Source: Antedon mediterranea (taxonomy: Eukaryota; Animalia; Echinodermata). Taken from it: 64,000 nt of DNA. Each line of letters begins with the position of its first letter. The first letter of the stretch is position 1. The DNA lies in NCBI RefSeq assembly GCF_964355755.1, contig NC_092670.1, positions 1,850,201 through 1,914,200 on the forward strand. Direction: 5' to 3'. A program made the translations under genes and the position numbers. Of this stretch, positions 4,178-63,034 are shown in pieces. The notes below the pieces were generated by a model. It had not been told where the DNA came from, did no database searches, and saw only the letters and a program-made list of their open reading frames with translations.

Positions 4178-6229
4178 TTATTCATAGAGACTGCTAACAC
4201 CTTTTGTAGTCAATAATTTTTCAAAATCTTCTCTTGCCTTATCAACCGACTGTCCTCTAAGATTCGATACTAATGACACTTTTCCTTTCGTTAGCTCCGG
4301 GAAAGCCGGACTACTGACAACATTCTTCGCTTTTGTAACTTGATCGTCGTCTGTTCCAGAATTTGTTTCGGATATTTGTTGTCGGGTTTTTGCTCGTTGA
4401 ACGCTCTTTTCACCAACTTTCTTGCGAAGGTCTGTATAGGTTGACCGTTTTTGACCATCTGAAAAGGAGAAAAAATCTAAAAATCAGTCAACTATTATTA
4501 TTAATAAAAGACGATCGCAATGCACACCACCCCACTCGTAGGCCTACACTGATGTTACCAAGGTCCGTACGCGGGGAGATAAAAACACGCACGCGTACTA
4601 TCATTGATGTCACCAAGGTCCGTACGCGGGGAGATAAAAAAAAAAAACACGCACGTGTACTAACATTGATGTCACCATACGTCCGTACGCGGGGAGATAA
4701 AAAACACGCACGCGTACAAACATTGCACCAAGGTCCGTACGCAGGGCGATAACAAAACACACGCGTACTAACATTGATGTCACCAAGGTCCGTACGCGCG
4801 CAAAGAGTATACTTATTACTTATATCGCAAAGGATCTTACTTGAAAACTCACAAATTTATGGTATAAAATAAATATGAATTGAATAATAATTGCATAATT
4901 AGGCCTAATGGATTAATGAGTATTTTTTTTTTGCCAAACGTTTAACGGGTTTGTTAGGCATGATAGTTTAAATGTCGAGGATTTTAAATAAGCAACAGAA
5001 AAAAAAAATCAAAACTTACGAATATCTTTTTTTGAGTCAGTTTTCTTGTTTTTTCTATTCGCTTGTACAACTCGTTGAATACTTTCCTCTGAAAATACCA
5101 ATGCTCTATCACCGGCCACCGGGTTGCCATTACAGCATTCTGCATTACACATTTCTCTATCATCTTCCACTTTTCCATGCGGGGCAGCCGTTTCTTTAGC
5201 ATTTTTATGTAAAATATCGTAGCCGGGTCGGAATGAGTCGGTGAGTTGATGTTGTAAATAATCGTATAACTTACGAAGTTCTTTATATTGCAATTTGTTG
5301 TTCAGTGTTTCATCATTGTCGTCAAGATTATTGATAGAAGGCGATTTAAAAAGTTCGTTTCTGTCTCCGGTCGCCGGTTCCGGAGACGGATACTGTATCG
5401 ACTTGTAAGAACTGTGCATCTTACTAATAGCTGACCCGTCTATTGTCTGATTTTCGTCGTCAAAAGTTACGTAAGAGACAGAATCATCGGAACCATACAA
5501 AGAGTCGTACTCATCATCGTCATCTGAGGCGCCAACCCGCCGTTGTCGAACAGCGTTCTGTTCTCTGTACGCTATCATATTGGATACTTTATTTGGGATG
5601 GTTGGTAAAAAAGACTGCTGTTTGGTCGTCTGAATAACCTTTTTCGGACGCATTTCCGCCCAGTCGTACGCACTACGAAATTCACGGTCGCGTACGGTTG
5701 TCGACGCGTTACCTTGATGGATTAGAATACTAGCGCTCACATCATGTCCTCCACGCATAGCTTGCATTAATGGAGTCATTCCATTGAAATTTGGAATATC
5801 CACGCTCAGAGAGTATTTCAGTAAGGCATCCACCATCCTTTTCACAGTGGCAGCACTACCAGAAGATGCAGCGTGAAAAAGAGCTGTACAGCCATTCATA
5901 TCCACCTGGTTCAGGTCAAGATCCACGTCTCTGTGAGCTAGAAGGTAACTTACAAGATAGTCTTTACCGTAGATGCACGCCCATTGCAGCGCATTCCTCC
6001 CGACGACATCTGTCTGCGAAACTTTAGCGCCATATTTCAGAAGCAGTTTTACAACTTTGATCTGGTTTCGGTTGTTGTCGATGAAGACCGCTCGTATCAG
6101 CGGACCTTGTATGCAGTCGTCGACGACGGAGACACGAACGCCGGATTCGATAAGCAGACGAACTTGCCGAGGTCTACCCGCCGAGACTGCCTTAAGTATA
6201 GCGGAACTTGTACCGCTTTCTTCTAGCAT
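4178..6229 (-). CDS. Ankyrin-repeat protein (ANKRD34/63-like architecture), 2 exons: 6229-5020 and 4458-4178, ~496 aa
   Basis: N-terminal ankyrin repeats (GRNALQWAC, GCTALFHAA, GMTPLMQA); phase-1 donor gtaagt after 5020 joins in frame to acceptor at 4458, open to TAA at 4178. Confidence 0.8.
4540..4800. repeat. Imperfect ~60-bp tandem repeat in the ankyrin gene intron
   Basis: Repeated caccaaggtccgtacgcggggagataaaaa...acgcgtactaacattgatgt. Confidence 0.85.
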
Positions 6230-7938
6230 GGTTAATTCTTACAGTAGAGATGATTTGAAAAAATAGTTAATTTTCAATAGACGATTAAAAAGAAGCTGTA
6301 AATATGTTTTTGCTTCTGTTGGTCAAACACAAACGTTCAGCCCTACTGTACTGTTGGTCAAGGCAAACTGTTATGCGAATATACGTGATAACAATCGAGC
6401 TAAACTCTTGTAGACAAGATAAGGTATCAACTAAACTTAGGGACGGATGTGAACATTATCAATATCTCTACACGTCCTCCTTCCAAAGTTTCGTCATTAC
6501 GTCACTTTAATTGACGGAGTGACGTCACATGGAACGATGATTGACGAAATGTCAAATTAATTATCACATAATGGTTATTAAATGTTATCTTCCGCTAGTC
6601 AATGTGGATTACAAGTGTATGTTACACAAACCACTTTCAATTTAATAAAGGTTGAAGCATTCAATGATTAGGAGACTGACCTTTACCGGATAAGGTCTTT
6701 GTTCTCAGGAGGAAGAAAAGAGTTCTCTGTTTATGGCACGTCATTGTCGACATCATGCGTCCACAATGGAACATGTCCCCCGGTTTGTGGCGCACTGTGA
6801 ATACCTCACAGTCGGTTTTTTCGTTACAGTGTTCAAATCAATTACTGAGATAAACTCATTAGATTTGTTGCATTAAAGATTTTATGATCAATTAAAAATC
6901 TATTTTTATTGATTTCTGTTCGGCTGTTCAGAATCGGATACTACTGCTACCTATCCTATTTTGTAACGATTAAGTATAAACAGTTACTGTAATGTTACAG
7001 ATTACACAAAAGTGAATTCAGGAGAGAATTCAAGGCAGGAACAAAATAAGTCGAAAATAATTATGATCAAAGATGTAGGGCTATTATTAATAAAATCAGA
7101 CTTAAAATAGGCCATGTTGTAGTTTTAATAAAGTTAATGTTTTCGATCCCAATTTTGGTCAAAGTGAACAAAAAAAACATTTAGGGGCTGTATATTATTA
7201 AGAATCAGAATCTTATTATTGTTATAATGGAGAAGGGAGGGAGGGGAATTAATGGGTTTTATTACAAGTTACCGTATGTAGATTAAGTAAGATTACCTAT
7301 GTTTTTTGTCTATTTTGTGCTTTCATTTATTATATATTTTTGTTGGACGCACCTTCAAAATGTGAAGTGTGCCACTGTTACAAAAGTGAAGTTCCGAAAT
7401 AATAATTAATTATTATTATAGTATTTTTTAAGGATCTTTTTGATTGACAGTGTCAAACATAGGCCTACACAATCAACAATCTACAAACAAATTGTCAAAT
7501 CAAAGTGTACACAAAATACTTTACAATGCTGAAGGAGATATGACGTCACGCGATGTCAAATAAATTGTACTGTGTATTAATATTATTATTTGACTGTTAA
7601 CAATAAAATGGCATTTTAAGGAACTTTTAAAACATGGTTCACGATGATATAATAATAGCATGAATGAAGAACAGAGTTTTAAATGACTTGCATCTTGGAC
7701 AAGTGTGTGTTCTTCACACGGACTTCTCACCAAGTGTTTTCTGTGTGTTTAAACATTGTATAGTGAATATTAAAAGTAAACACGGAACACCCGCTATGAA
7801 TTAATAAATAGGTCAATTTGGGGTGGGTGAGAGAACAAGGGAGAACAATACGCAATACGGGCTGAAGAATGGTAGCCATACCATGCAGGTGATGGGTGAG
7901 AGAAAGGGAGAACAATACGCAATACGGGCTGAAGAATG

Positions 7939-8774
7939 ACGACTTTGAAAGTGGCTATGCTGACGACTTTGCTGTAAGCTCCTGGTCACAAGAAGAACTG
8001 CAAACCATTGTGAACATCTTGAATAAAGTTTGTCTGGAATTTGGTCTAAGAATTAGTGCCCCCAAAACAGAAACCATTATATGGAACTGGAAAGAGGAAG
8101 TTGAAGAATACCCAAGATGCATCATACAAATTGGCGGCGTACACATTAACAACGTAACACACTTTAGATACCTTGGTGTATGGGCTACCTACAATGATGT
8201 TCATATTGGAGATCAAGAAGTAAAATACAGAATCAATTCAGCCAAAGGAGCATTTGCAGAGAATAGGGCATTGCTTACCAACAGAACGATCCACCTACAA
8301 ACAAGAATGATGTTTCTTAATGGTCTAGTTAGGAGTAGACTCACCTATGGTTGCCATGCTTGGAGGGCAACAGGAAGTGAAATGTCCAAACTTAGCACAA
8401 CATACAAAACCTTCCTAAGAAGAATGCTAGTGAATGGCTTTCAAAGAGTCTGCCCACCAAACCATGTAGACATATCCTCAGATGAAGAAACAGATGAAAA
8501 CTATATAGACTGGCGTTACGTAATTGATAATGACGATCTCTACAAAATTACTGGCTGTCAACCGCTAGAAGAATATGTCTACAAGCAACAATTCAACTGG
8601 ATCGGACATGTAATTAGAAAAGAAAATGAAGATCCTACAAAAATTCTTACTTTTCACACAACACAAAGTAAACGAAGAGGTCGGAAGATACCATCAGTAC
8701 TTGATAGAGTTGTACAACAAAGTCAACTTACTAGATGCAACTTCATTAGAGCCTGCTTCAACAGAAATTTATAA
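7939..8774 (+). mobile_element. 5'-truncated non-LTR retrotransposon (LINE) RT C-terminal fragment
   Basis: YADD motif, GLRISAPKTE, FRYLG, SRLTYGC, WIGHVIR, RRGR typical of the LINE ORF2 C-terminal region; begins abruptly inside the satellite. Confidence 0.9.
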
Positions 8775-10407: not shown

Positions 10408-11442
10408 ACCATGCAGGTGATGGGTGAGAGAACAAGGGAGAACAATACGCAATACGGGCTGAAGAATGGTAGCCATACCATGTAGGTGATGGGTGAGAGA
10501 ACAAGGGAGAACAATACGCAATACGGGCTGAAGAATGGTAGCCATACCATGCAGGCACTGTGTTCTACTTATTTTGTAATGTCCAGAATAATTCATAACC
10601 GCTTATTCGCGTGAGGATAAATATAATAAGTTTTTGAAATTATATCTAATCACTTTTATTTATTTATTTTCAATCTTTCGACAATCAGAAACAAAAAAGT
10701 TGAACGGGGCTGTCGAGGTAAAGCAAAACTGTCACTACAAAAGATGTGCTTTAAACCCACGTCAACAATACATATCAACAAAAAAAAATTCAATACAAAA
10801 CATAAAAACAAATAAAATACACTGTGCAAAAATTATATTGGAGATAGATGTTGAATTGAAGAGATCATGTTAAATTGTTGTTCATTCGTTAAAATACATG
10901 GCTTACTTATTCCATGGAGTAAAGAATACTCCATGCTTATTCCATGGACCTATAATTCATAGGTTCTTGCTTTATTCCGTTATAGCATGGAGCTATTTAT
11001 AGAGGAAATTGCATTTGAAGGTATTTGTATGCTTAATTACCACCCGCCGCTTTGTTCATGAACATAAAACATTATCATAAACATCAATAAATTACGCCCT
11101 CTACAACTATAAAAAGGGAAAACCCCTTTAGGAGTACTCCACTTTACAAAGGTAAAATTGTTTTATAATTAGAACAATGAATCTCATTTTTTTAAACATA
11201 AACAAATAATCTAAAACAATTAGACAATATGCAATAATATAAATGTTTTGATTCAGTTTAATTTTGCATCTTAACATACAATTAGAAACTGAAACCTAAA
11301 TTTTAAAAACCTAACACAACTATTTACATAATGGAATGGTCCAACATTGAAGACGCTAAAAAAGAATATAAGTATTTCCTTGTTTCACTTCTTCTTCTTG
11401 CTGGTAGAATAGACATTTTTGTAGGCCTACTGTAGAATAGAA

Positions 11443-14400
11443 ATGGCGAACAAGGGGCACGTTTTGATTTACTTGTCTGTTATTTTAAAGCTGGCTTTGA
11501 GTCAGAGCGACGACCCAACAAATCCTCATAGAGATCCGTCAAAATGTGAAGGTAAGAAATATTGGAAACAGGCTAATAAATAGTAGTAGGCTAGGGCCTA
11601 GCTAGCAAGCAGTTGTACAACTCTCCATACAGTACCACGCCTGGTGTAGCACAGTACTATTTAGCTTCCAATCTGACTATTCTGTTGATTTTGGATCATT
11701 ACTATGGGCTCTGGCCAAAAGCAATTATAATTATACCTACAATGTACATCTATCTATTTAATTGCACTAGGCCTAGGCTAGGCCTACTACCACCGCCGTG
11801 CAAAGGGCAGGCGCTAATATAAGGATCTGATGTACAGATTTAAATATTGTATATAGTTTATACTGTCACTGCACAGGTAGTTAAATTATTAACAACATAA
11901 AGTGGCCTTATACTTTATTTTAATCTGGTTATTAAAATAGAAAACATAATTTGGTTTCCAGATTTAATGATGAATAATAAATAATGTAATGTTTTAGTTT
12001 GATATTCTGTTTTTTAGATTTTCAATAATTGTTGAAAAATTCATTTCCTGTTTTGCAGTTTGTAAATATGTTGTTGACGAATTAGAGGGTAGCTTATCTG
12101 ACACCTCAAAAACTCATGAGGTTTTAAGAATAGGACACGAGTTTGATAAAGAAGCTAAAGAAATAAAGTACAGGCATTCGTAAGTACATTAACTATTTTT
12201 AGGGATGCTTCTATATATAGATTAATTAATTTAGTTTCAGCAATTTACTCTATAACCAAATTTTGGAGTCCCCTTACACATGAAATACATGTGATAAATA
12301 AAACAGTAAATACAGAAATGTCTGGCTTACAACTTTGAGGCATAATACATTATTAAATGCATACAAATCAATAAAGGAAATGAATAATGGATCCATTTTA
12401 TATACGAATAATGCATTTAATTATACATACAACATTAACCAATGATTGTTGTCTCAGCAAGAATTAATATGAGTACTGCATATATCTTAATGAATAATGC
12501 ATACATGTTAATGAGTACTACTGTATTAATAATACATACATGTTAATGAGTACTATGAACAATGCATGAACCAAGTACAGAGAAATATAATCACAAATTT
12601 AAGCTCAATTTCACAACAAGAAAGTATTACTTTAGATTCCTATGGAAAGCCAAACCCGCCAAAAATACATAATACATACCATCCACCAATAATTAATTCG
12701 TACAAAATTCAAACCATCCAATATTATCTCATGCAGTTCAATGAAAACTTAAACCATTCACCTAGTATCTACACCATCCAATATAATGTGTGACCATCTA
12801 TCACTAGCCCAAACGACAATACGCCGAACAAACTACCCATAACACAAACCATCTAAAGAATGTTGAGCCCAGGCAGCAATAATTGAATTAATCTAACGTT
12901 AATACAAGTATATATTAGTCAACTCATTTATCAACATTTCATGTAGTTCATGAACATTTCAAACAAAGCATCTTAATTATAGTTCATCGAATTATAATTC
13001 TAATACATTGCCTGTTTTATACACCGTTCGTCTGTTCAACAGTTGAAACAACTGTTTTGCACACGATACGCCCGTTCGTGAGTTCAAACCATGATATTTG
13101 AAGCATCGACTTTCCAAACAGCGATTTTTCGCACCGAACGTATTTTCTTGAGTTAAAGTGGTTGCATTTCAATCACTTACTTTTGATTGGCCAGTATTAC
13201 ACACCGTTCGCTTGTTCGTGATTTCAAACCATGATATTTGAAGCATCGACTTTCCAAACGGCGATTTTTCGCACCGAACGTATTTTCTTGAGTTAAAGTG
13301 GTTGCATTTCAATCACCTACTTTCGATTGGCCAGTATTACACACCGTTCGCTTGTTCGTGATTTAATGTGATAACATTTCATTCGACAACTTTTCAAACG
13401 TTAGCTTTTGGCTCCGCTTACGTATATATCAGTTGATATACTATTTTTTAATTTTCATACTTTCCATACATCAGTTTTGTACATCATTCGCATTTACGCA
13501 TGTAAAGTGTAGATATTCCACTCGACAAGTTTTAAAACGGTAGTTTTTGTTTTATTGTTTAATTGTAACTGTTGGCGCCGATTTTATATTGGGGTGGGGG
13601 GGGGGGGGAGGTGTTCGGTACTGAATGTGAACAGTACACATTTTTAAATATGGTACCTCTACATGTCCGGAAATTACACTCTCTCAAAAAAGGGTTTTTT
13701 TTTCCGTAGTGTGTAATATTAAATCAACCACAACCACAACCGTAAGATGAGAACATTTTAGGAACAATGGACATGTTATGCCCTGAAATTGTACTCATTA
13801 AAAATATTCCAGCTAGAATAAAATGTATAGTCCCCTCTCATATTCCCAAAAGTCTTTAACATGGCGTATGTTCCTATTGCTATTGCTTTGCAAGAAATCT
13901 GTCAAACACTTGAACAGTATGTGAATGGTAACATTGATAGAAATCTATTAATGCCACTCCCAATGCGACTGGAGGTTATTATCGAAACGATAATCGGGCA
14001 TGAAAATATCCGGTTAGAGGTAATCGATAATCTTGTAGCGAGTAAAAGAGCGATAGAAGAAGTCATTGGCCCAGGCCAGGTAGGAGACGAACATCCCACT
14101 ACGGACTCTGCCATGATTCACACTGGCAGACCAGGACGGGCAAGATTTGTGATCGGGCGTAGTCAGCTGCAGTTCTTTGTGGGTGCGTATTATTTTTAGG
14201 CCTCCTAGGTTTTGGGCCTAGGCCTATGTATCATTATCTACTTTAATTATTTCTTGTCTTTGGTAAAGTGGCTACCATCGAAGTAAGTAATTCATTCATT
14301 AAATTAAATTCGTGTTTCGGAAGCCATCTTCTTCTTGAAGAGAGTGGCAAACAGTCGTAACCAGCCGAGCCTTAAAAACAATTATTTTTTGTTTTTTACG

Positions 14401-17400
14401 CTCGGCTGATCATGGTTGTTTATCATCTTTGTAAGATAGTAGCACGAACATAGTGTGTTTAATACAAATTTAAAGTAGGCCTAACGACCTTTACTTTTAT
14501 GTGAAACAAATTTTGTAATTTAAATATTAATATATTGCATGACAAAAGGTAGGTAGGTTGCATGATAGGTAGGCCTACTGTATTATTTTTTTTTAAATTA
14601 TTATGAGGCTCTTGCAATAATAAGCATGTAGAGTCTTTTTTCTCTCGAAAATATTACCTTACAGTACAGTACTTTGAATTATTTCTTAGAATTTTCTAGC
14701 CAATATATTATCCAATTCCCATATAACAATTTAGTATTAATAATGAACAAAATTTGGTGTTTTTGTAAACCTAATATTTTACTTTCCGTTCAGTCTTCTC
14801 TCCATAGTCAGTTATTTTCATTTACTTCGTAGACAACAACTTTACTGTTCAGGACATGAGTAAAATGTTTTCTGTAAGTAAAAGAACGATAGAAAGGAGG
14901 CTACAAGAATACAACATGACAACAAGAAACTACACAGATATTTCTTCCGAGTTTCTAGACGCGCGTATTGGCATGATAACCATGAATTTTCCAAGATCAG
15001 GTAGGTATTTAAAATATACAGAATGGCTTGTTTTGTTACGCGACGGACTTTAGAATAGAAGAAGTACTCCTTCGACATGATAAGCATACAAAATAAGGAT
15101 TATTTTTTGAAAGGTTGGGTTAGATACGATGATCGCATCATTTATTGATGGGATGGGATTCTTTCTAAATGATAGAGAGTAGTACCACTGTTTGTAGCGG
15201 TAGCTATTTGCATAGTTTGCTTATTTGTTTTTCTTTATTCATCATTTCATCTTAACACTAGGACTTAAGTCAATTGAGGCTCATTTGATGAAAGACGGCA
15301 TACGAGTACGAAGAGAAGCATTGCGAGATTCTGTCAAAAGGGTTGATCCCGTTGGGCGTCATTTGCGGTCTCTGCGTTGCATACGCAGACGAGTTTATTC
15401 AGTGCCATCTCCGTTGGCTCTGTGGCACATAGACGGGAATCATAAACTAATAAAGTAGGTCTACACGTTTACGATATGTTATGATCAAAACAGATTCGTA
15501 GGCAACCCGACGCAGATATGAAAAATGATAATGTAAATGTAAGAAATTTACATTTTATGATACAATAACATAAAAGTATTTTCAGTTTCCTTTATAATTG
15601 TCGTATGTTTGATTCTACAGATGGAGGTGTGTGATTCATGGAGGTATTGATGGTTATAGTAGAGCGATAGTGTACCTAAAACTCAGTACAAATAACAGGG
15701 CATGCACGGTTCTAACTTGTTTCCAGGAAGCTGTCAGAAAATGGGGATTGCCGTCGAGGGTGAGAGCGGACAAGGGGATCGAAAATGTTGATGTGGCTCG
15801 CTTAATGTTGAACCACCCTTCTAGAGGACCAGGCAGAGGTAGTTTTATTACTGGAAAAAGTGTTCATAACAGCAGGATTGAAAGATTGTGGAGAGATGTA
15901 TTTGAGGCTGTTATATGTTCCTGGCGCACATTCTTTAGCAGTTTGGAAACCATGGGTTGTTTGGACCCAGATAACGAGGCGCATATTTTTATTTTACATT
16001 TCATTTATGTACCCATTATTAATAGTATGTTGATGGATTTCCAACTGATGTGGAACAACCACAAACTGCGGACCGAGCACAACAAAACCCCAAATCAATT
16101 GTTCATAATGGGTATACAAAATATTGCATCCGATGCAAGCATCATAGCGTCTGAGTACTTTGAAGCCATACCAGAGGTAACGTGGAGTTGTATAAATTAA
16201 AGTAATAAATAAAACCTTCATTTTATACGGTATTCTTGGATTTAGAATGTAAGGCGAACGGATGTTCGTATAATTTGTTTGTCGTAACAACTACGTTATT
16301 ATAAACCTGTAACAAAAACTGTTTTAAAAATAGTCTCCCCGACACACACATTATACGTGAGAAACTACTTGTATAGTTAGCCGTTACCGTACACATTTTA
16401 ATTTTACCGTGTCTTGTATGATCTACCTAATCTTCTTTCATTATTTTGGCTTATTGTAGGAAAGTGTTCAGCAGTATGGTATAGATCCAAACTCACCCCT
16501 TCCAGAAGAAAATGATGGTATAGTTGTCCCTGACACTGCCTGTCCAATGAATGATGAACAACTCTCTTTATTTAAGGATGAAATAGACAATGCGCTAAAT
16601 AATGCAGTTGATATTTGGGATGCAACTCCTTATTTACGAGGCTTAGATATTGTTTCTGAATTTTGATGAGTAATAATGACTATTGTGAATGTTTAAAATA
16701 GAAAATTATCATAATGCATATATTAATAATTTGGTTGGCATTTACACTTTAGTATTGGAAATCAGGCTGTGTGAATATCGATTGTTTTGAAAAACAACTT
16801 ATTCTCAAATGAATGTTAATGTTTTTATTAGTTAATTATATTAGGCCTAAAAATATCTGTGTAGATTGGGGATAGAGAGAGAGAGAGCATGTTGCACAAT
16901 TTTACTGATTGGTGTATTTAATGACTGCCTTAATTGTTAATTAACAACAAGTTTCTTTAATTGTTAAAGAAAAACGTTTATTGCCATTAAATTGAAAAGG
17001 TTATTATATGTCCTAAAATCAATACCGTAGTCAACATATGATTTGCTTTAACATTTTTTCTACTGATGTGTAAACTAAATATGTTTGTTGAAAATAATGT
17101 TGTACTTAATGTTTCAAGAACTGCCGACACTAAAATGTTTAGAATCAAATATTATATTTCATTTATTTAGATCTACCCTGTACAGGGGGTTTAAGAACTG
17201 GTATGCCTAATGTTTAAAACGGAAATAATATGAAAACGTATTAGCTCATAACAACCCTTTCAACCATCGCTCATCTTCTTCTGTCATATATCTTTCCGTT
17301 ATGTAAATACAAATTACCACCACTCTTTCTCAACGGTCACCTCCTCTATCCACTCTCCATGTCCTAAATTGAAGCATTATGGATTTTGCTCTGTGATTGA

Positions 17401-20400
17401 ACCAACCCATATCTACAGTAGAAAACTTTATTTAAAGTATGTCACTTGCTTTGTTCTGACCCACTTAGGTCTACACATTACCAAAAAACTGTTGAGAAAA
17501 TGCCAAATCATACATATTGAACAGTGTGTCTTTTGGCGGCAGACTGCATGTTAAACCTGGCCGTGGAAGTTGCATACTGTTAATACACGTGTTGGCAGAC
17601 GGGAGAAAAGAACCTGCTGTTTCTGTAAATACTATTTGTGGATGGAGAACAAAACCCAACACTGGTTCTTCATCCGTTCCGGTCACAAACTGCAACAGAT
17701 GACCAAGCGTCAGGTGACCTCTTCTACCACCTATGAAAAAGAGAGGTAAAAGTCAAAACAAATCAAGTCATAACAAAACCCTTTTAGCCATCGCATCAGT
17801 AAGTGACTTGGCTTAAATGCTTTGAATAGTTTTAACACTGCATGTTCTGATATGAATTAAAAGTAATGAGGTTTAAGAAAATTTGAAAAATGTCGGAGTA
17901 AAGCGAATTTATTTTGGTATGTTACGGTTATTGCTCTTTTTTGCCATTTTAGACACTGTTATTATATGGTTTGCGACGGCAACAACAAATACTTCACTTG
18001 TATAGCGGACACATCCACTACAAGTGTGCTCAATGCAATATTCCTTTATTGTTTGTTTATTGTTTTCCACACATAATAAACTTAAAGTTAAATTGTACTA
18101 AACAAAAAGTGACTTCAGAAATACACATAAATAAAAAAGGGTAAGTGTGTGGAAGCCAAAATAAGCTTGAGAACTTTAGGGCATGGCCACCGGTTAAAAT
18201 AAGGGTTTAAACAAATAATGGATTGCATTATGCTACAGTAGGGCAGAAAAAGGAAAATATACGAACAGACAGTCTGTGTTTTTCTATAACTTATAACTTA
18301 CTAGCAACCTCTCTGACGTAGTCCAGAAATTGGGCATATACAGAACTTTCAAATATCTTAGTGTTTGAGCCATCGCTGCCTTTAAAAGATGGCTTCAACA
18401 ATTCTTTCATCTTTTTTACAGATAATAGTGCTGCAGGGCTGGGTCGAAAAAGATGAACAAATGTTGGTATGTGACAACAAAGCTATAGAAAATAATTAGA
18501 TAAAATGGTAGACAAGTGAATTGAATTTACAATTTTCAGTTGATCATTGAACGCATTACATTATTGTTTCAAGCAGAGATGAAGCATTATAGTGATTGGA
18601 TCTGACGTATGCATATCATTGTGTTTTAGTTACTTATTTAAAGATATGGATCAGAAGCTTAAACTGGCAGTAACTGGTTTTGCGCTCTGTATATGTATAT
18701 TGTAGCAGTACTGTACGACATACCTGATATATCCCCAACTTTGCGAGTCCCTTTCTTAAATTGGTTATGCACTCAGAAGGAGCACTGCTGTTGACGAGTT
18801 CGTCGATAAGGTCACTGTGCATGAATTGTGGCAATTTGCCATTCTGGACGATACTCATAGCTGTTAAAAGATAACCATTTTTAAATACATTAAATCATTA
18901 TAACAGTACCGTACTAGTAAAAAGAAACAAAATAAAACATACGGTATAAGGCTATTAGGAACCAATTTGGTGAAAACAATTGTTGCATTTACACGCCACG
19001 TCACACGTCAAGGAACCTCAAATAGCACCGTGAATCGCGTGATTTTATTGTAAGTAGACATTGAAAACCTACCCATTATTATGCCGATGTAGTAATATTC
19101 CTCGGGAACGTGTTCTTTCATACCGTTATCAAAATAACCATCTTTTATTGCTCTTAAAGCCAACACAAAAAATTCTTTCCTCGGGCCGCCATAATCGGCT
19201 GCTCTCTGTGTGTAAGATATGAAATTACTGTATAGCAACACGGTTAACATCTCATTTTAACTAAAATGCTTTGAATATATTCGATTAGTTTTTACAAATT
19301 CAATTGTTTTTTTTTATTATCATTGTATTTCAAAAGGTTAATTTTATTTATTACAATAAAAATGTATTTAATATACCTCATCATAGAATTGCACTTCCAG
19401 TGTTTTGCGGTAGTCGGCCATATCCCTAATTTCCGAAAAAGCAGTTGCAAGCACATCTTCTCTATTAATCATAATAAAATTTGTTTCCCCTTCGATTACC
19501 TCTGCTTCATCTTCTATCTCTAGTGGTCTTCCTGAAACAATAGCTTTTTGGTAATAACGTAGCACTTCTACAGGATTCCCATTAATGTTGTGGGTATTGC
19601 AGTAATTCACGGTATCTTTGACAATTGTTTCAATAGTAGTAAGAGCAGGTTCTCGTTCGTTACGTTCTGGTTCGTTAACAAACTAAAAATAACAATTATT
19701 TTTGTAAATGATGATACTCATCAAAACCGAAAGCTATAGTACATACTCTTGCAATAATACATAACTTCTATTATAACATAGCTAGGTAGCTTATCTTTTT
19801 CACTGAAATCGCACTATGTTTAGTTTTTTAGTTCTAAAAGTTGTTTATATAATTATATTTAAATAATGAACTAGGAACTAGCTTCACAGACATTGAATGA
19901 GTAGTGCCTACGTACAATGTTTTCAACAATTTCTAAGTCTAAGTTCTGTTCTGTTCTGTTCTGTTCTAAGTTCTCGGAGGCCGGTATTGGTTCGGTGGCC
20001 GGTATTGTTTCGGTGGCCGGTACTTCATGTAGTCCCGGTTCCAGGTCACTGTCTGAACTTGAATCTTCGTTCTGGGGTTCAATAAGAGAAGATAATGTAC
20101 AGTAATATTGCGTGGTCGAGTGAAAAAAAAGTTGTTAGCCTAAATTATGATAGAAATATTCAAATTAAGCATTTTGTTATGTTAAAAATGTATTATACAA
20201 ATCAAATAAAAAAAGGAGAATATTGATAATATCTGAAAACCGGTAATTACCGGCAAGTCCGTATCGGGAAAATTGATTTTCAATTCTCGTTTCTGAAAAC
20301 TGAAACTGATTACCAATACTACTTTCTTCTCTTTCACAGGTAATTACCATGCAATATTTGATGTGCACTTTCATGTTCTTCATGGAAATGTTGGCCCTAC

Positions 20401-23400
20401 AATTTAAACATTTTTCTCGGGCTTCCACTAATGGTATTTCTGCCTCCGGTATATCCCGCTGCAATGGGCGAATGTATAATTTTCCAGAACCAAATGTTCT
20501 AAGGTCTTGAACTTTACATGGCCCGTAATGGACAACAATCAGTTTTTTGCGATCACCTGTTGTTATCTCAAACCCTCCGCAATTTGCAAGCAACGGAAAT
20601 GTTCTACAAAAACAAATTAAAAATAAATATGTAGAATTTTGTTCTCATTTGCAAACTGTCATAAGCATCATCATCATAGTTGATTATTTTCTCTTTAACA
20701 AACAGTATTTTGGCAAAATCACCACAGAAAACATTTCGATGTGAAAACATTAGAAAAATTATCTTACTTAAATACCAGGTTGCAAAAATCGTCTTGATTG
20801 CCTTCCGCTGGAAACACAATTTTCTTCTCGCCATAGCCGTTATCTTTCAGTTTTCGACGTTGGGCTACAGTAGGAACAGTTTCCATTTTGTGTTCCATGA
20901 GGCATACTAAAAATCTTGTCAATGTTCTTCCTAAAAAAGGATAAAATATCTTATAAAAACCATCTTTTATTAATAATCATTTCGGTCAATTAAGAAGATA
21001 AGACCTCCTTGTATTATTATTAGGCATGTTTTTTGGTTAAATAGCAAATTTTGTTACATGGGCTAATTGTTGGAGGTTAGCAAATATACAGATATGTTAG
21101 GAAATACATAACATCGTTATTCTTTTTATTATATGTTTAATAAAACTGTTAACATTTCAACTTTATATAAAAAACATACACCAATAAACCTGATTGGCAG
21201 TATTATCCGAACTCAACTATAACATGACGTAATAACTGTACCGACCTAAATACATTACACACGACAGCTTCTAAACTCTCATTGTGAAAATACAATTAAA
21301 ATTGATGCGATAAAACAATTAGCATCGTACCTTTTCCAGATGGTTTACTACTGGTACTGTTGTTGCTATGACCCCTGTTATATGGGGTTTGTCTCTGAAA
21401 TAATATTATATGTACACAGTGATAAAAACTCGTTCAAAATGTTAATTTTACTTGTAATACAAAAAATATATGATGTTTTACTGAACGGCCAGGTAAGTCT
21501 CCAACAAAATTAATAAAAATGTGATGGACAACATGTTAAAATGTGGCACCATTGTATTGAAAATTATTTAAACTGGATTGGTACAGGCGCGGAGCCACTT
21601 AATAAGCTATCTATCGGTACAATAGTAAACGATTCGGGTGCCAAGAAGAAGGGGGTTTAGTAACATGATGCAACTTACATAATTTCGATTGAACAGTCGT
21701 CTGTGTTCACTCGCAATACTTTGGTCTCTGCTAGGCGTACTGCTGGTGCTAGCACTGGAACTCAACGTAGATCTACTACTAGGCCTACTAGTACTAGCAG
21801 CATGACTAGTGGTTGTAGTAGTACTAAGCTCACTACTACTATTGGAAATGGTAGCAGACGAAGGAGTGTTTGTGATAGAATTTGCTAACCCCTGCAGCAC
21901 CTGCAAAACACTACGTAAATCATCTGACATACTGGATGATACCTGAAACGAATGAGTCCATACAACTTGTATTTACACTTTTTCACAATTTCACGTTAAT
22001 TTATCACATTTTAAGTTTATATACTAGAAAATCAATATTATTCCTAGAGCCTAGTAGGCCTATATGGTTTAGAGCTATTTGGCAAAATAAAAAATAATTG
22101 TTCAGTGGTAGGCTTCTGTACTATTATTATTATTAATAAATACAACCATTGATTAAAATATCGGTCTACGCACAATCGGAGGTTTATATATAATTTAATA
22201 TAAGTATGTGTAATAATAATAATATTATATTATAGGCCTAGCTAGGGCCTGGCCTAGCTGGATAATTCCTATAATTAGTAATTTCAGCTACAAAATCCAG
22301 GTTCCAATCCTGGTCACCACTCATGGCACTAATTGTAGCTTTTTATAAAATAATGATAATAATTCCAATATTAATAATTATTAGGCCTATGCCTAGTATT
22401 AGTATTGTAAGTAGGCCTAGGGCCTATATCATGCCTAGCCTGCTAGGCCTATCTAGGCCTATACAGAAAAGTATAACAATAACTTAAACCATCATCAATT
22501 TCACCTACAAAATCGATAAAACACAGAATTTAAAATAATAATAATAATAAAACAGGAAAACACTATTAAACATTATTATATTTATTTATCTACCTATCAT
22601 CAGTATACGTACGGTACGTACCTTTTTGGTCTTCCTGAGCTGAATCAATTCAAAAATCAGCATCAATGTGTGAAAAATGACGAACTACGCAGTTGAATAG
22701 CCCCCCATCCATAACAGCGTTGGGTTATTTAATGCATGATGAATAACAAATAATTATGATTTAATAACAAATACACATGTTTTTATTTAATCCATGATAA
22801 ATATTCGTAAAATATGTTTATTCGGATATTTATTAATTACGTCTCCACTATAGTCTATAAAACATAATGAATGTCATTATTTCAAAAAAAATAGGCCTAC
22901 CCCGTAAACAAATGGAAGCTTCTCAACAACAGTTAATTTATGCATCATATAGAGAGCACAGAGCAGAAAATGGCTCTAGGCCGGCCTCATCCTAGCAGCC
23001 GCCGCACAGGGGGAGAGAGAAGCACAACACCAGCTCTCTCTCTCTCCCCTGTCTCTCCCCCACAGGCGGGTGAGGTGGGTGTTACCCCGGGCCTAGTTGT
23101 GGGGCGTAAAATTGTAACAGGCCCACAAGCTAAATTATATTATTTCATTCTGGTTTTTTTTTCATTATTTAAGTTTGTGATAATGTGTGTAACCAGGGAG
23201 ATGTAAAATAAATTTATAAATTAGTTTACATCTCCCTGACCTGTGTGTGTAACGTAGGCCTAAGTAAGTGTCATACAGTCGTATTAGTTGACATTCACCC
23301 CCCGCCCCTCAATATTAAATCGGCGCCAACAGTTACAATTTAACAATAAAACAATAAATGTGCGAACAACTACCGTTTAAAACTTGTCGAGTGGAATATC

Positions 23401-26400
23401 TACACTTTACATGCGTAAATGCGAATGATGTACAAAACTGACTATGGAAAGTATGAAAATTAAAAATTAGTATATCAACTGATATATACGTAAGCGGAGC
23501 CAAAAGCTAACGTTTGAAAAGTTGTCGAATGAAATGTTATCACATTAAATCACGAACAAGCGAACGGTGTGTAATACTGGCCAATCGAAAGTAGGTGATT
23601 GAAATGCAACCACTTTAACTCAAGAAAATACGTTCGGTGCGAAAAATCGCCGTTTGGAAAGTCGATGCTTCAAATATCATGGTTTGAAATCACGAACAAG
23701 CGAACGGTGTGTAATACTGGCCAATCAAAAGTAAGTGATTGAAATGCAACCACTTTAACTCAAGAAAATACGTTCGGTGCGAAAAATCGCTGTTTGGAAA
23801 GTCGATGCTTCAAATATCATGGTTTGAACTCACGAACGGGCGTATCGTGTGCAAAACAGTTGTTTCAACTGTTGAACAGACGAACGGTGTATAAAACAGG
23901 CAATGAATTAGAATTATAATTCGATGAACTATAATTAAGATGCTTTGTTTGAAATGTTCATGAACTACATGAAATGTTGATAAATGAGTTGACTAATATA
24001 TACTTGTATTAACGTTAGATTAATTCAATTATTGCTGCCTGGGCTCAACATTCTTTAGATGGTTTGTGTTATGGGTAGTTTGTTCGGCGTATTGTCGTTT
24101 GGGCTAGTGGTAGATGGTCACACATTATATTGGATGGTGTAGATACTAGGTGAATGGTTTAAGTTTTCATTGAACTGCATGAGATAATATTGGATGGTTT
24201 AAATTTTGTACGAATTAATTATTGGTGGATGGTATGTATTATGTATTTTTGGCGGGTTTGGCTTTCCATAGATTCCTCCATAAACTATATAATACAACGA
24301 TTGTAGGAGCAATAGGAACTAGAACTATTCCTCCATAAACTATATAATACAACGATTGTAGGAGCAGTAGGAACTAGAACTATTCCTCCATAAACTATAT
24401 AATACAACGATTGTAGGAGCAATAGGAACTAGAACTATTCCTCCATAAACTATATAATACAACGATTGTACAGTAGGAGCAATAGGAACTAGAACTATTC
24501 CTCCATAAACTATATAATACAACGATTGTAGGAGCAATAGGAACTAGAACTATTCCTCCATAAACTATATAATACAACGATTGTAGGAGCAATAGGAACT
24601 AGAACTATTCCTCCATAAACTATATAATACAACGATTGTAGGAGCAATAGGAACTAGAACTATTCCTCCATAAACTATATAATACAACGATTGTAGGAGC
24701 AATAGGAACTAGAACTATTCCTCCATAAACTATATAATACAACGATTGTACAGTAGGAGCAATAGGAACTAGAACTATTCCTCCATAAACTATATAATAC
24801 AACGATTGTACAGTAGGAGCAATAGGAACTAGAACTATTCCTCCATAAACTATATACTACAACGATTGTAGGAGCAATAGGAACTAGAACTATTCCTCCA
24901 TAAACTATATACTACAACGATTGTAGGAGCAGTAGGAACTAGAACTATTCCTCCATAAACTATATAATACAACGATTGTAGGAGCAATAGGAACTAGAAC
25001 TATTCCTCCATAAACTATATACTACAACGATTGTAGGAGCAATAGGAACTAGAACTATTCCTCCATAAACTATATAATACAACGATTGTAGGAGCAATAG
25101 GAACTAGAACTATTCCTCCATAAACTATATAATACAACGATTGTAGGAGCAATAGGAACTAGAACTATTCTAGAATATGACAAATACTGTGTCTACTGTA
25201 ATTCGTAATTATAGCTTAAATCGTTTTTATTTTACAGTGAAACCAGACTGATAGATGTGCTGGAACAAGTTTGTGAAAGAATATTGAAGTATAACATCCA
25301 TGCTGAAAGAGAGGCAAGCCGAAGGTATTTAACTGGTTTTGTGGTTAAGGTACCCGATGTCTTTATTGGTTCTGGTACCCGATGTCTTTGTTGGTTCTAA
25401 GTTCAACAATTCTGATGTTCAATTTTGTTTTTTTCAAAACGTTTCAGGTTTGCAAAAGGAACCGCTGAAACAATGCAGACGCTGATGAACTTACGAGATA
25501 AAGGGGTCAAAGTTGAACTTGGAATACCAGATAACATGTGGGAAGTACCAGGTGCTCCCATATATAAAATGAAACAATACGTAAGTATCTCACGTTATCA
25601 GTTAATTACGCACCATATGATAAGTTAATTATATTTACAGTCCGTGTAAGAATGAACTGATGGAAAATGCTAAAATCTTATCCAGGGAGGTTTTATACCT
25701 TCATCATATTCATGAATTTTGTCATATTATTAATTATTAATAATAAGAATACAGTCGAAGTTAACATACAGCCTAGAGGTTGAGGGCATTGAGGCATGTC
25801 TTCATCACCTATACGGTGCATGGCCTCATTTGGGTATACCATAGTCTTCTTATGATAGCCTAAATTTATTTAACAGTTGAAAGAGTGACAATAAAATACT
25901 GTAATACTTTGCTCATTTTTTTCTAGTGTGATTCACTAATTGAGCAATATGAAGATGTGATAAATGATTGGTATTTTGCCGAACCAGATGAAAGGACTGA
26001 CCTAACAAACCTTCTGTGTCTAGATAACTACCTAGCTAAGGGTGACCAAGGTAATATAAAGAACTGACCTAACAAACCTTCTATGTGGCAGTGATATGGG
26101 TAGTGACATCATCATGTCCATATATGGGCACATCATATTTTATTGTCACATAGAGACAAGTTTGATAGTGTAAGCAGAGCTTAAATTATTGAAACTTTTT
26201 TTTTATTCCCAAGAGTGTTTAAAGGAAGTTTGGACCGGTAAAGAGCGAGTGGACTTTGATGGTGACCAAGAAGATGAGGAGAAACAAGAGAAAAAAAAAA
26301 AAACAGGCAAAAAACGTAAGAAAAACAACACGCAGGATGGTGAAAAGAAGAAAAAGGCAAAAAAAGGCATTCATTTGAATTCAGAAAATATCCACTCAAC

Positions 26401-26425
26401 AGTACACAGCAAAACAGAACTTTGA
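11443..26425 (+). CDS. CNPY4: Canopy-family ER chaperone (CNPY3/CNPY4-like); exons 11443-11551, 12059-12179, 25238-25324, 25448-25580, 25927-26050, 26214-26425
   Basis: Signal peptide, [54 protein letters not shown], acidic/Lys-rich tail, C-terminal KTEL ER-retention signal; splice phases consistent. CNPY3 vs CNPY4 not resolvable by eye. Confidence 0.85.
12641..13600 (+). repeat. Left TIR (~960 bp) with an internal 140-bp direct repeat (13085/13225)
   Basis: Reverse complement of 23298-24270 with only a few substitutions and one ~11-bp indel. Confidence 0.95.
13861..16666 (+). CDS. IS3-like DDE transposase/integrase, 5 exons (13861-14182, 14833-15000, 15262-15454, 15621-16176, 16460-16666), ~481 aa, intact
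   Basis: GRPGR, HTH ([19 protein letters not shown]), [39 protein letters not shown]; candidate triad D(HIDG)-D(RADKG)-E(RIER); exons total 1446 nt in frame. Confidence 0.92.
17471..21930 (-). CDS. Transposon-borne HECT-domain protein (G2E3-like HECT) with a UBZ-like zinc finger; 10 coding exons (21930-21679, 21394-21331, 20930-20768, 20603-20348, 20071-19916, 19682-19377, 19205-19073, 18860-18724, 18482-18302, 17730-17471), ~635 aa
   Basis: REDVL...[51 protein letters not shown] (catalytic Cys), C-terminal FFGNV; CLNCx11Hx3C finger; all GT-AG junctions phase-compatible, 1908 nt. Confidence 0.85.
23298..24270 (-). repeat. Right TIR (~970 bp)
   Basis: Inverted copy of 12641-13600. Confidence 0.95.
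24272..25170. repeat. 55-bp minisatellite, ~16 copies, abutting the right TIR
   Basis: Unit tattcctccataaactatataatacaacgattgtaggagcaataggaactagaac, some copies with a 5-bp insertion. Confidence 0.95.
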
Positions 26426-27000: not shown

Positions 27001-30000
27001 TTAGTTTGGTACAGTTTTTTGTAACACTTTTACAAGATTTGAAGTTGCCAACTGAAGTGGTGTTTTTTCTTCCTAGTATAAAACAATTATTTGATAATAT
27101 TAAAAATCATATCACAATACAAAATTAAATTCTTCACCCTGTATTTAAGATAAGATAAGATAAATCTTTATTGTCATGAACACAACAAGGCGAACATGAA
27201 ATTGGTTTTCCTTGATGCTTAAAAACATACAATATATAAAACATTAAAAATATCAATACAATACATTAAAACTATATACAGAAGTAAACAAACTATCTTT
27301 GGAATGTTGTGTTGGAAACATGAATTCCTACATCGAGTGGTATTGCACATTAAAGGACGAATTCTACCTGATTTATTAACAACATATTTATCATTCAATG
27401 GGTGTGAGTTATCTTCCATTATTTTGTTAACTTGGCTAATAACATCGCGCCTGTAAACTGCGTCGATAACACTGAAATTCCTTCCTATTATTTTACTAGC
27501 AGTTTTCATAGTACGGTCAAGTTTCATTTTATCATTAGCACTCAGACTATTGTACCAAACAACACAGTTGAAAGTTACAACACTAAGAATAACACTCTGG
27601 TGAAACATAAAAAGTACATAATTATTTCACTCTGAAAGAGCTTTCTGAGAAGGTACAGCCGTTGATTACATTTTTAAATAATATTTACAGTATTTGCATT
27701 CCAATTTAATTCACAATTTACTGTGTTGTTTATAAAATATTTACCTTATTTTGTGCTGTCAAATCTGCACCATTCTTCACTAAATACGTAGCAACCTCAG
27801 TCCTGTCCTCTTCACAAGCTAAATGTCTAAAAGACGAAAAAGAAAGTTTACAGGAAATTTACAGCAATGACAGTGCTGTAGCCACAAGAAATAAAGTGGT
27901 GAGGTTGTTGCAAGAAAATTAAACTCTGTATGAAAAAGTGGTCAGGTTGAACCTTACCAACCATAATGTACCAAAGAGTACAATTACTTTATTTACATAC
28001 AAACTAATACAATACATATTGAAATACAATCAATCAAGGTTATTATAAATTGCATTCTAACTTACAAAGCTGTGTTACCAACGGAATCTTGAAGTCCAAG
28101 TTGGCAGTGATGGTCAATAAAAAGTTCTACTATTTTCAAATGACCTTTGGATGTGGCGCGATGGAGCGGTGTTGACCCCATGTGGTCACCTTGGTCTGGG
28201 TCTGCTCCATTCTCCAACAAAACCTTTGCAATCTGAAAAAAAAGAGTATAAATCGTAAGTTAATTTTTTAATTAAAAATGTTGATATTAAAACCTGGATA
28301 AAAGTGCTCCTGTTGCTAATTATGTATAAATGCAGTTACAGTACTGACTACAAATCATGTACCATAACCCGCGTTTGTCGCGCGTGTAAAATATGTGTAA
28401 TTGCCGCGTGCCTGTATTTGCCGTGTGGACCATGACGTCATCACTTTGTAGCTTTTTACTGGTAAAATATGGAACTCCCGGTACGACGCCCGCGACAACA
28501 CACACGTGGGTATCTGTTTGTTTCTATTGTTTAGGCCTACCATCATATGTAATCTGAACCCGCCCGTTACTGTATGCAACAAAGTTTATTTTTTCTCTAT
28601 TGTTAGGCAAACAATAAATAAGAAAGTTTATAGAATTCATGTAAATTGTTTTTCATCGGGGTTTTGTTTAGAGTTCACGTCGTATCATTTTATATAATGT
28701 GAGGCTTACAGAGAGAAGTGTACAACAGGGAGGCTAGAATAGAGAGCTACTAATACTATACCTACTAAGCCCCCGACAACAACAAAACATATTTAGCGAT
28801 CTTTAATAGGTCAATAAATAGCCTAATAATAGTAATATTATAAAATGATGTTTCCTTGTATTTTCCTAACCGTAAGCCAAATATTTAATTTAAAATACAG
28901 AGCTAGTGTTTATTTTAGGCCAAGAAGTACAGTATGTATTCGCTCAAATAACTGTGACTGTGAATGGGTTTTCCGCCGCTCGGTGTAGAAAGTCAAATGA
29001 TTACGTTCTTCTAACACGTTTATTAAATGTCTTTTAGTATATTTCTATCTAACATGTCTGCATTGTATACTTGCTTTATGAATTCTCTGCTTATGTAACG
29101 ACTTAATAAGTTGCTAAATTGACGTTTATAAAGCAGATATTTGTCTGACATCAGCCCATGTTTATAATGAAAACAAAACAAGGTTCCGAAAATGGTACAG
29201 TCCAAAATGGGGTGTGCAATTAAATAATATCAACGTAAACATGCGCACGGTATCAGGGCTGTAATTATAAGAGAACTGATTTCCCCTGGACGGGAAATGG
29301 TAAAAACTTGTATTTATTCGACCTCGCTTCTCTCTCGCTCTGGCTGTGTGCGGAGGATCGCTCCAACGTGGTTTCGTGGAGCATGGTTTCGTGGAGCGAT
29401 TAATGGTCCAGTCCGTAACAGGGGTGTACATTGTTTACCGCGCTAAATACATGCATGTCAATACTGGCGTTGTAATACTATATAAATGTTTTCCTCCCCG
29501 ACGGGGAATGGTAAAATCTTTATGTTATTATTTGGCCTAGCAACTGTGTGTACCTGTGTGAACTCCATGGATGAACTCTACAACGTGGTGTGTACAGAAA
29601 GTACGTCATTCGGCCACCAGTGACGATCGTGTTTTGAAAGATATTGTTGGGTCTTTTCTACCTTGTTTTTTTAATGAGTTTTCTCAAATACTTAATAAAT
29701 ATGACTTAAAAATATATATAAACAAACCCTGAAAGCAAACTAGGCCTAGAATAGTAGTACTGTACTCCCGGTAGTACTAGTAGGCCTACTAACTAGGCCT
29801 AGTATTTTCAATCACAGACATAGCCTAATTGCATCATGGAGGTTTTTACCTTCATTATTGCAGTATGATAAATAAATCGATTTTTTATTTCAAATAGGCC
29901 TATATTTTGTTATATAAAATGCTGTTATCCTGTACTGTAATTCCAGTTATTGTCTGTTTGATAATAATAATATATATGAACAAAACATCAACAAATTATA

Positions 30001-30879
30001 AATACAGTTCGCTGCAGTTGAATTACTCAATGCAGTAATGCATGAGTGAATATGGACAGTATTGTTAGTACCTAATTACACGCGAGTCACGCGTTTTTCA
30101 CACCCGTGTAAAATGTGTGGGCTTGGTATATGATATGTAGTCAGTACTGTACAGTACCTCAAACCAATCTTTGGAAGCTGCATAATGGAGCGGAATTTGG
30201 CGTGTTTGGTTCGTCGCATTCACTTTAGCACCACTTTTTAGTAAAAGCTGTAAAATCTCTTTTCTGCCAGCTGATGACGCTATATGCAGAGAAGACCAAT
30301 CCGCCTAAGAGTAAGAGAACAATGTCAATGTACTCTAATTAGATTTGTTTACAGATGAGACATTAGTAGTACAGTACACAAACTTTTTAAACTGTGATGC
30401 CTACCTCATCAGTAGCATTGACATCTGCTCCTTTATCCAAAAGATAAGATACTATGTGGAGATGACCTGCTGATGATGCCCAGTGAAGAGGAGTGCGTTG
30501 AACCTAAAAGTACACAATAAATGAAGACAAATATTTCAATGATTAAAACTATAAATTTAAAATCTAAAAACAAAATTATACCAGTCTACAACACTCTTTT
30601 TAAACTAAAAACTAACTAATTTTAATTAAGCATTAGCTTTCAAAACCAATAAATGTGATGTTCAGTTCCCTTTTTGCTGTGTCATTTAAATGAAAATAAC
30701 CACCTTCACTTCAACCAGCCAGCCAGCCATTCACAAAAACATAACAATCTGTTTTTTGTTTCACTCAAATTAGTTACCTGATCCACTTTTGATATCAAAT
30801 TTGGTTCTGTCTCAATTTTAGACGACAACAAATTAAGATCTCCGTCATACGCTAATATGCATGATTCTAAGTTAGACAT
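27001..30879 (-). CDS. PSMD10: 26S proteasome non-ATPase regulatory subunit 10 (gankyrin); exons ~30879-30778, 30503-30405, 30304-30158, 28232-28066, 27827-27745, 27072-27001
   Basis: Ankyrin repeats [76 protein letters not shown] match gankyrin. Confidence 0.9.
27140..27720 (-). mobile_element. Degenerate LINE 3' fragment (L2/Rex1-like C-terminus) with (TCTTA)n tail in the last PSMD10 intron
   Basis: [18 protein letters not shown]...KTASKIIG...SHPL...SGR...TTRCRNS motif; aataaa followed by tcttatcttatc on the minus strand. Confidence 0.75.
28339..30149. mobile_element. Non-autonomous Tc1/pogo-like element, imperfect ~28-bp TIRs (CAGTACTGACTACA...), TA TSD
   Basis: ta|cagtactgactacaaatcatgtacca at 28339 and tggtatatgatatgtagtcagtactg|ta ending 30149. 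Confidence 0.65.
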
Positions 30880-31267
30880 TTTTATAATACTGTAATAATA
30901 TAATTTCAAGAATACTCTTCAAAAATGCTTGTTACCACAGTGTAAAAATGTATGTGTGTAGTGTAGTCTGCTCTTGATCCACTGTAAACATATTTTTGCA
31001 TAATCTCTTTATTCCTTTTAAAAATAAGCTTATTACAACCTAATCAAATTAATAATTAATTGTATTCATACCTATATTTATAACGTGTACATTAACGTAG
31101 ACTTAAACATTAAATGTTTAATTTAAAACATTAGAAAAACTAATTCATGATTAAATTTCAATAGCCAATCACAATAAGCAATATCTTTTCCCATAAAGAA
31201 CAACGTGCGCTAACCCCCTACCATCCGGCTTGAAGTGTAAGAAAAGGGAGTGGAGAAAAGGTCTAAA
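30880..31267. promoter_or_regulatory. Probable bidirectional promoter between PSMD10 and EIF3B
   Basis: Start codons head-to-head, 388 bp apart; agccaatca CCAAT box at ~31163. Confidence 0.6.

Positions 31268-51660: not shown

Positions 51661-63034
<11,374 letters not shown>

Follow-up and report, generated by a model that had tools for sequence, protein, structure and literature searches.

Can a HECT-type ubiquitin ligase work once it has lost the part of its N-lobe on which a charged E2 docks? The question is raised by a gene in a 64,000-nucleotide stretch of the genome of Antedon mediterranea (the window, to which all coordinates refer), which encodes a protein with a HECT-like catalytic centre and a shortened N-lobe (short HECT). 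Papers cited by PMC or preprint number were available in part, and statements resting on them are limited to that part of their text.

Gene organization and the missing N-lobe segment

The last five exons of the short-HECT gene (19682 to 17471; Table 1) are all bounded by GT-AG, contain no stop, and translate to a sequence identical with the C-terminal part of A. mediterranea protein P0001; another contig encodes a further HECT protein that matches without a difference from end to end. Two predicted splice joints are present in run X10 (kind unrecorded), in one low-depth contig each, while the joint 18723-18483 was not seen in the reads and the HECT pieces in run X8 are unspliced; none of the runs is recorded as RNA. 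Assembly error was rejected as an origin of the short form, given the unbroken contigs that span the deletion site in runs X1 (which may be the source sample), X5, and X8 and the same gap across family loci.

Table 1. Positions in the window of the short-HECT gene, its parts, and the element that carries it
Feature	Position	Strand	Remarks
Complete IS3EU-type DNA transposon	12641..24270	.	11,630 bp, TATGG..CCATA termini
Left target site duplication (TSD)	12635..12640	.	GATTCC, 6 bp
Right TSD	24271..24276	.	GATTCC, 6 bp
Left terminal inverted repeat (TIR)	12641..13603	+	963 bp, internal ~140-bp repeats, 950 matches to right arm
Right TIR	23298..24270	-	973 bp
DDE transposase	13861..16666	+	5 predicted exons, 481-aa open frame
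Transposase exons	13861-14182, 14833-15000, 15262-15454, 15621-16176, 16460-16666	+	
Short-HECT gene	17471..21930	-	10 exons, 635 aa, exact match to protein P0013
Short-HECT exons 1-5	21930-21679, 21394-21331, 20930-20768, 20603-20348, 20071-19916	-	
Short-HECT exons 6-10	19682-19377, 19205-19073, 18860-18724, 18482-18302, 17730-17471	-	
Predicted ubiquitin-like (beta-grasp) domain	20464..20925	-	P0001 ~111-210, one intron inside; AlphaFold
C2HC zinc finger, C228-C247	20351..20410	-	Weak Pfam zinc-finger matches
Shortened HECT-fold domain with N-terminal helices	17474..19634	-	P0001 ~317-638; Pfam HECT E 4e-9
Six-residue loop N470-S475, in place of the small E2-binding N-lobe subdomain	18775..18792	-	
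D406-E413, counterpart of Rsp5 D495-E502 (composite ligation site)	19173..19196	-	Alignment to Rsp5
Catalytic-position Cys601 codon	17585..17587	-	
Phe635, -4 aromatic	17483..17485	-	

The HECT-fold domain is ~80-90 residues short in its N-lobe. From the GG motif to the catalytic Cys we count 193 residues in the alignments, versus 275 in E6AP and 286 in AREL1, and from REDVL to the C-terminus 265, close to the ~260 of the preliminary description. In superpositions of the N-lobe alone, the model has 178 residues against 262 of WWP2, 180 against 263 of ITCH, and 177 against 266 of HACE1; at 83-89 residues short, it offers no complete N-lobe. About 80 residues are absent at the junction of LIDELV and ECITNL, and ~13 more from the hairpin just upstream; the site of the deletion had been named correctly beforehand, its size (~100 residues) somewhat too large. 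The join itself is short as first described, with a spacing of 6 residues rather than about 10, and lies within a single exon (18860-18724) with no intron at the junction, so that no exon can be missing there. A missed exon, the obvious source of the lost subdomain, was rejected on this ground and on the occurrence of the short form in 17 loci with a single stop-free frame; the introns flanking the junction exon, of 212 and 241 nt, contain stop-free stretches of at most 47 and 29 aa, respectively.

In the family profile, G454 aligns with position 110 of 1c4z, which becomes E6AP residue 604 if C820 (PMC8635412) is taken as the catalytic Cys. On the other side of the gap, the equivalent of E476 pairs with Pfam HECT position 157, roughly E6AP 705 if indels are ignored, and the deleted span by alignment counting is thus ~E6AP 620-704, some 80 residues; its residue-level placement rests on these sequence alignments because the structural aligner reports ranges only. 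We take the limits of the E6AP small subdomain to be 621-702, in agreement with that span. The small N-lobe subdomain houses the E2 site together with a portion of the exosite (PMC3077247). The deleted span contains the E2-interface residues T656 and F690 of E6AP (PMC8635412) and, by the same counting, covers the counterparts of Rsp5 V591 and L609 in the E2 site and of F618 in the exosite (PMC4965700).

Structure model

The AlphaFold model of the HECT-fold domain (pLDDT 94; pTM 0.90; alignment of 85 sequences) is bilobal, and its top fold matches are all HECT ligases (best Z up to 22), including HUWE1 (PDB 6xz1; Z, 21.8; rmsd, 3.3; 272 of 384 residues aligned). The domain also matches the Pfam HECT profile (Table 1), a comparison proposed as a check in the preliminary description. 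At the deletion site, helix 462-470 is joined to helix 476-486 by a short loop. The model lies within 3.3-3.8 Å of ubiquitin-loaded or ligation-state HECTs (6xz1, 4lcd, 8c07, and 9r85), compared with 13-14 Å for E2~Ub complexes (3jvz, 3jw0, and 9b55); this closer fit is suggestive only, and a predicted lobe arrangement is itself no evidence of catalytic state.

The model of the whole protein has a pTM of 0.58. For residues 111-210, most fold matches in rows 20-50 of the list are ubiquitin-like, with middling but consistent Z-scores of 5.5-7.0, the best being the TBK1 ULD (Z, 7.0; rmsd, 2.7; 79 aligned residues), and the predicted beta-grasp domain is covered in 51 of 55 long members. The C2HC motif, presumably a UBZ-like finger, is present in 30 of the 55 members of at least 520 aa. 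Pfam also finds SAM_1 in 19 and DED in 1 of 85 members.

Distribution of the short form

With residues 330-638 as the query, 162 relatives were obtained; among the 120 of them that were listed, the named ones (hemichordates, bivalves, and cnidarians) share 36-60% identity. The P457-K483 span measures 24-34 aa in 121 of 126 aligned relatives and is truncated in the other five, none being longer. When 262 proteins were examined and 58 without an anchor were left out, both anchors (G454 and G489) were found 26-43 aa apart in 204 of 204 (the named ones being from echinoderm, hemichordates, bivalves, and cnidarians), a count that shows the breadth of the short form rather than the absence of long forms, since relatives found and ranked by likeness to the short form are selected against long ones; the homologues that span the site do share the deletion, a point that the preliminary description had left to be checked. 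When 1.84 billion representatives were searched with a family profile, 5,980 matched at E 0.001 and 414 at 1e-30; these are not all short HECTs because the profile included the N-terminal part, and no form long at the junction occurs among the best 150 of the 5,980. A search for long-form relatives with the N-terminal-domain region returned only the protein itself among 92 candidates. Neither search turned up the closest ancestor of full length, so that it is by reference to solved HECTs that the shorter N-lobe is read as a loss.

Of 377 pattern matches in metagenome contigs, 244 proved to be relatives, and 80 loci were kept; in 68 of these, a single alignment contains the two anchors, 26-38 aa apart. 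One stop-free frame runs from the GG motif to the Cys in 17 of the 80 (GG-to-Cys, 191-219 aa), nine of which have a convergent transposase on the same contig. The short form is a widespread family trait, not a private lesion. None of 33 pattern matches in viral contigs was confirmed, and a viral fold library gave distant giant-virus HECTs (10-15% identity). Near clusters in the ESM Atlas are HECT-named and from Mollusca and Chordata, with uninformative lengths; for the N-terminal domain, only clusters without a name were obtained.

A divergent subfamily (P0183, P0189, P0191, P0205, P0208, P0223, P0224, P0230, and P0238) has an even shorter junction, with 30-34 aa between the anchors, and a longer upstream hairpin. 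In a tree without outgroup of 53 of 114 near-complete domains, the bivalve rows fall together with modest support (76/77).

Retained and lost catalytic residues

Residues were mapped by alignment to Rsp5, with roles taken from PMC3738095. The counterparts of Rsp5 D495, E502, and F736, needed for ligation or ubiquitin contact (PMC3738095), are D406 (kept in 212 of 216 relatives), E413 (209 of 217), and F567 (194 of 196); that of L771 is L595 (mostly L or I), which completes the composite ligation residues. The catalytic C777 corresponds to C601, a Cys in 155 of the 157 relatives that reach the position, and F806 to F635, four residues from the end and F or Y in 143 of at least 147; the ANTC Cys and the C-terminal Phe, earlier described as intact, are indeed so. 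R560/F561, also needed for ligation (PMC3738095), are not kept, their counterparts being G454/K455. H775 corresponds to N599 (N in 110 relatives, H in 31), and F778 to the variable I602.

The median frequency of the top residue is 0.55 over 297 positions, and the junction loop is among the least conserved (0.17-0.40); conservation across relatives revealed no replacement surface at the junction. In 45 pairs of 10 chosen intronless loci, amino-acid identity is 45% and identity at four-fold sites 31%, near random. For close copies, dN/dS is 0.10-1.30 (5 of 153 pairs usable, near-identical), and these values do not demonstrate constraint on recent copies. Judged by the alignments, most residues of the second step (ligation) are retained, and the E2 platform of the first step is lost. 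Sequence, structure model, and family conservation thus bear out the central claim of the preliminary description, that the E2-binding subdomain has gone from an intact catalytic centre.

An IS3EU-type transposon carries the gene

The gene stands tail-to-tail with a DDE transposase inside a complete DNA transposon (Table 1). IS3EU elements are marked by TAYGG..CCRTA ends, a 6-bp TSD, and an integrase-like DDE transposase (PMC10045372, PMC12730594), and the IS3EU/GingerRoot features found here are TA..TA termini with TIRs, a 6-bp TSD, and an integrase-like DDE transposase. The transposase matches Pfam rva_4 (E 5.9e-69) and rve (E 5e-5), with weak HTH matches; D221, D238, D278, and E315 are kept in related loci, and the acidic triad is kept. 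Its last intron is skipped in one contig of run X8.

A transposase relative occurs in 25 of the 80 short-HECT loci, always downstream on the opposite strand and in no other arrangement. Where at least 2 kb of downstream sequence is available (25 loci), 19 have such a relative and 6 have no transposase match, one of these adjoining a Harbinger-type ORF. Elements that are more alike in one of the two genes tend to be more alike in the other (Spearman 0.51; permutation p 0.001; 15 non-redundant elements, left of 20 after near-copies were collapsed), which shows shared descent of both genes and not physical interaction. As typed by its ends, TSD, and transposase domains, the element is an IS3EU-type transposon, and the short-HECT gene is its second, co-inherited gene, long resident in such elements. 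An empty-site joint that skips 11,636 nt (the element and one TSD) is present in three of four runs, and varied flanks at both ends of the element indicate that other copies exist; because of the empty site and the several flanks, the element is polymorphic and probably recent.

Other copies and the surroundings were also noted. In locus L070 (2313-8268), a second complete element has TATGG..CCATA ends and the 6-bp TSD CTTTAG, and its HECT copy lacks query residues ~106-241; internally deleted copies are also suggested by joints in run X5 and by P0015. In L069 (6233-7760), a frameshifted short-HECT copy adjoins a Harbinger-type DDE_Tnp_4 ORF, either as a nested insertion or with another carrier. 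The transposon in the window lies in an intron of a DUF3456 host gene (Pfam E 6e-6; 11425-12183 and 25215-26425, +), whose exons resume beyond the element and which we take to be canopy CNPY3/4-like, and a 55-bp tandem array (24272-25170) starts right at the right end of the element. Neighbours at 5012-6238 (-), 7893-8771 (+), 31241-34975 (+), 28062-30918 (-), 56559-57050 (+), and 57849-58316 (-) comprise an ankyrin ORF, two reverse transcriptase fragments, an eIF2A-family WD ORF (presumably eIF3b-like), ankyrin exons that in our view resemble gankyrin, and a CRAL-TRIO exon. The preliminary description, right about the deletion, had contained neither the transposon cargo nor the widespread family nor the ubiquitin-like domain and C2HC finger.

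How the catalytic cysteine may be loaded

Since the E2-docking part is lost and the catalytic Cys kept, the protein is likely loaded with ubiquitin by another route. We put the probability at about 0.5 that this HECT-derived protein takes ubiquitin on Cys601 and joins it to a target, some other tether bringing in the charged E2; its mode of action is likely that of a HECT's second half. The E2~ubiquitin would be held by the ubiquitin surface of the C-lobe (F567 and L595) and by a substitute tether. The C2HC finger and the beta-grasp domain of the protein itself are the most plausible candidates for this role, beside a host adaptor or RING partner; with only 30 of 55 long members having the finger, it cannot be the universal tether. 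Ubiquitin would then pass from E2 to Cys601 by transthiolation, and closure of the lobes would bring D406, E413, and F635 together as the ligation centre. Since part of the N-lobe exosite is absent, mono- or short-chain ubiquitin would be the expected product, and the target would be one that helps the element, for instance a host silencing factor or the transposase. When the E2 site of Rsp5 is mutated, its C-lobe ubiquitin surface suffices for loading from a chemical thioester (PMC4965700). Against the reading, the HECT E2 site is essential in the native cascade (PMC4965700, PMC8635412). The second genes of fungal IS3EU elements encode alpha-kinase and TET/JBP proteins (PMC10045372, PMC12730594), an analogy that points to a host-directed modification. 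Also counting against the ligation reading, several of the kept residues (F567 and the glycines) are structural as well.

It is possible, though unlikely, that the truncated N-lobe allows Cys601 to be charged directly, whether by a donor of larger size (E1~Ub or the ubiquitin-charged form of another E3) or with a different ubiquitin-like modifier. Such loading would suit the clean and ancient loss of the entire E2 platform around a kept catalytic centre and the further trimming of the junction, to 30-34 aa, in the second subfamily, and in vitro, thioesters other than those of an E2 can charge HECT C-lobes with ubiquitin (PMC4965700); however, a natural precedent was not found in a limited literature search, and no E1-binding feature was identified in the protein. 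A transposon HECT that dispenses with any E2, being charged by E1 or relayed by a ligase in a two-step cascade used against the host, may be imagined with rather low probability.

The preliminary description had left open a non-canonical ligase, a decoy, or a different Cys-dependent chemistry, and conservation of the ligation-step residues favours the ligase among these. An idle decoy or scaffold would interfere with host ubiquitination, blocking or diverting it through binding of ubiquitin, a substrate, or a partner ligase, as might be expected from the loss of the E2 site and of the R560/F561 counterparts, from the SAM (19 of 85 members) or DED (1 of 85) domains, and from human G2E3, whose HECT is reported to be non-functional (PMC3673628). 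We regard this as rather improbable, because a pure decoy would have little reason to keep the Cys (155 of 157), D406, E413, and the -4 aromatic while silent sites are saturated. Another Cys chemistry in the same fold, namely the discharge of E2~Ub or E3~Ub by thioesterase action, or transfer or isopeptide cleavage on ubiquitin conjugates, would make use of the kept Cys and C-lobe ubiquitin surface and may need no stable E2 dock, but is decidedly improbable in view of the retained ligation-specific D406, E413, and F635, the lack of an identifiable protease triad, and the exclusively HECT-ligase top fold matches. Artefact or decay (a missed exon, an assembly deletion, or a dying transposon gene), to which the broken copies elsewhere (L060, L069, L070, and P0015) and the unseen joint might point, is very improbable for the window and refuted at the family level by the junction within an exon, the unbroken contigs, the open frames of both genes, and the 68 of 80 loci with closely spaced anchors.

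Relation to known systems

With canonical HECT E3s (E6AP, the Rsp5/NEDD4 family, HUWE1, UBR5, and AREL1), the short HECT shares the two-lobed fold, the near-C-terminal Cys, the -4 aromatic, the DxGG..E ligation motif, and the LQF motif, at an identity of only 15-24%; these enzymes keep the E2-contact span and the exosite Phe, whereas the short HECT, with an N-lobe 83-89 residues shorter, lacks both. Because the small E2-binding subdomain was looked for and is absent, we file the protein as HECT-derived and not as a canonical HECT member. In SMURF2, the E2 adaptor is Smad7. The anchoring of an E2 through an adaptor (title of PDB 1zvd) is a precedent for delivery beyond the HECT surface; SMURF2 keeps the small subdomain, in contrast to the short HECT.

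The G2E3 and GL-Metazoa (G2E3-like) families (PMC3673628) are likewise divergent metazoan HECTs, and GL-Metazoa may include proteins of the present kind; the source record of relative P0009 calls it G2/M phase-specific E3-like. In human G2E3, PHD/RING fingers accompany an extended HECT of ~365 aa (341-706; PMC9547173), and fish NHRE3 has a 350-aa HECT with E2 sites (PMC13623101). Unlike in G2E3, where such fingers are N-terminal, P0001 matches no PHD/RING family of Pfam, none is among the 25 families shown for the 85 members, and the model has the beta-grasp domain and the C2HC finger in this part; the available text of PMC3673628, PMC9547173, and PMC13623101 mentions neither an N-lobe deletion nor a transposon for G2E3/GL-Metazoa.

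IS3EU and GingerRoot elements (PMC10045372, PMC12730594) share with the present one the ends, the 6-bp TSD, the DDE transposase, and a second gene in opposite orientation, which in the known cases (fungi) is an alpha-kinase or TET/JBP gene and here a short HECT. The words HECT and ubiquitin have no occurrence in the main text of the IS3EU, GingerRoot, and DDE literature searched. Repbase, which stood outside that scope, has IS3EU families from zebrafish, Hydra, and acorn worm, and its entries might already note a HECT gene. In the available portions of PMC10045372, PMC12730594, PMC13196369, PMC3077247, PMC3673628, PMC2837046, PMC11353290, PMC6839031, PMC3738095, PMC8635412, PMC9547173, PMC4965700, PMC11934779, PMC13623101, and bioRxiv 2021.09.26.461848, neither a HECT without the small subdomain nor a HECT in an IS3EU element is described; no description of a transposon-borne or subdomain-less HECT was found in the open literature, most subscription papers lying outside the search.

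The small N-lobe subdomain has been taken as required for HECT loading, and a natural family that lost this dock yet keeps the catalytic and ligation residues over four animal phyla provides a test of dock-free charging, with a compact catalytic unit of 260 aa available for study. It also carries a warning: of the uncharacterised or G2E3-like HECT genes in the annotations of bivalves, corals, and echinoderms, many belong to transposons. A ubiquitin-pathway enzyme is a standing cargo of animal IS3EU-type transposons, which suggests that these elements act on host proteins.
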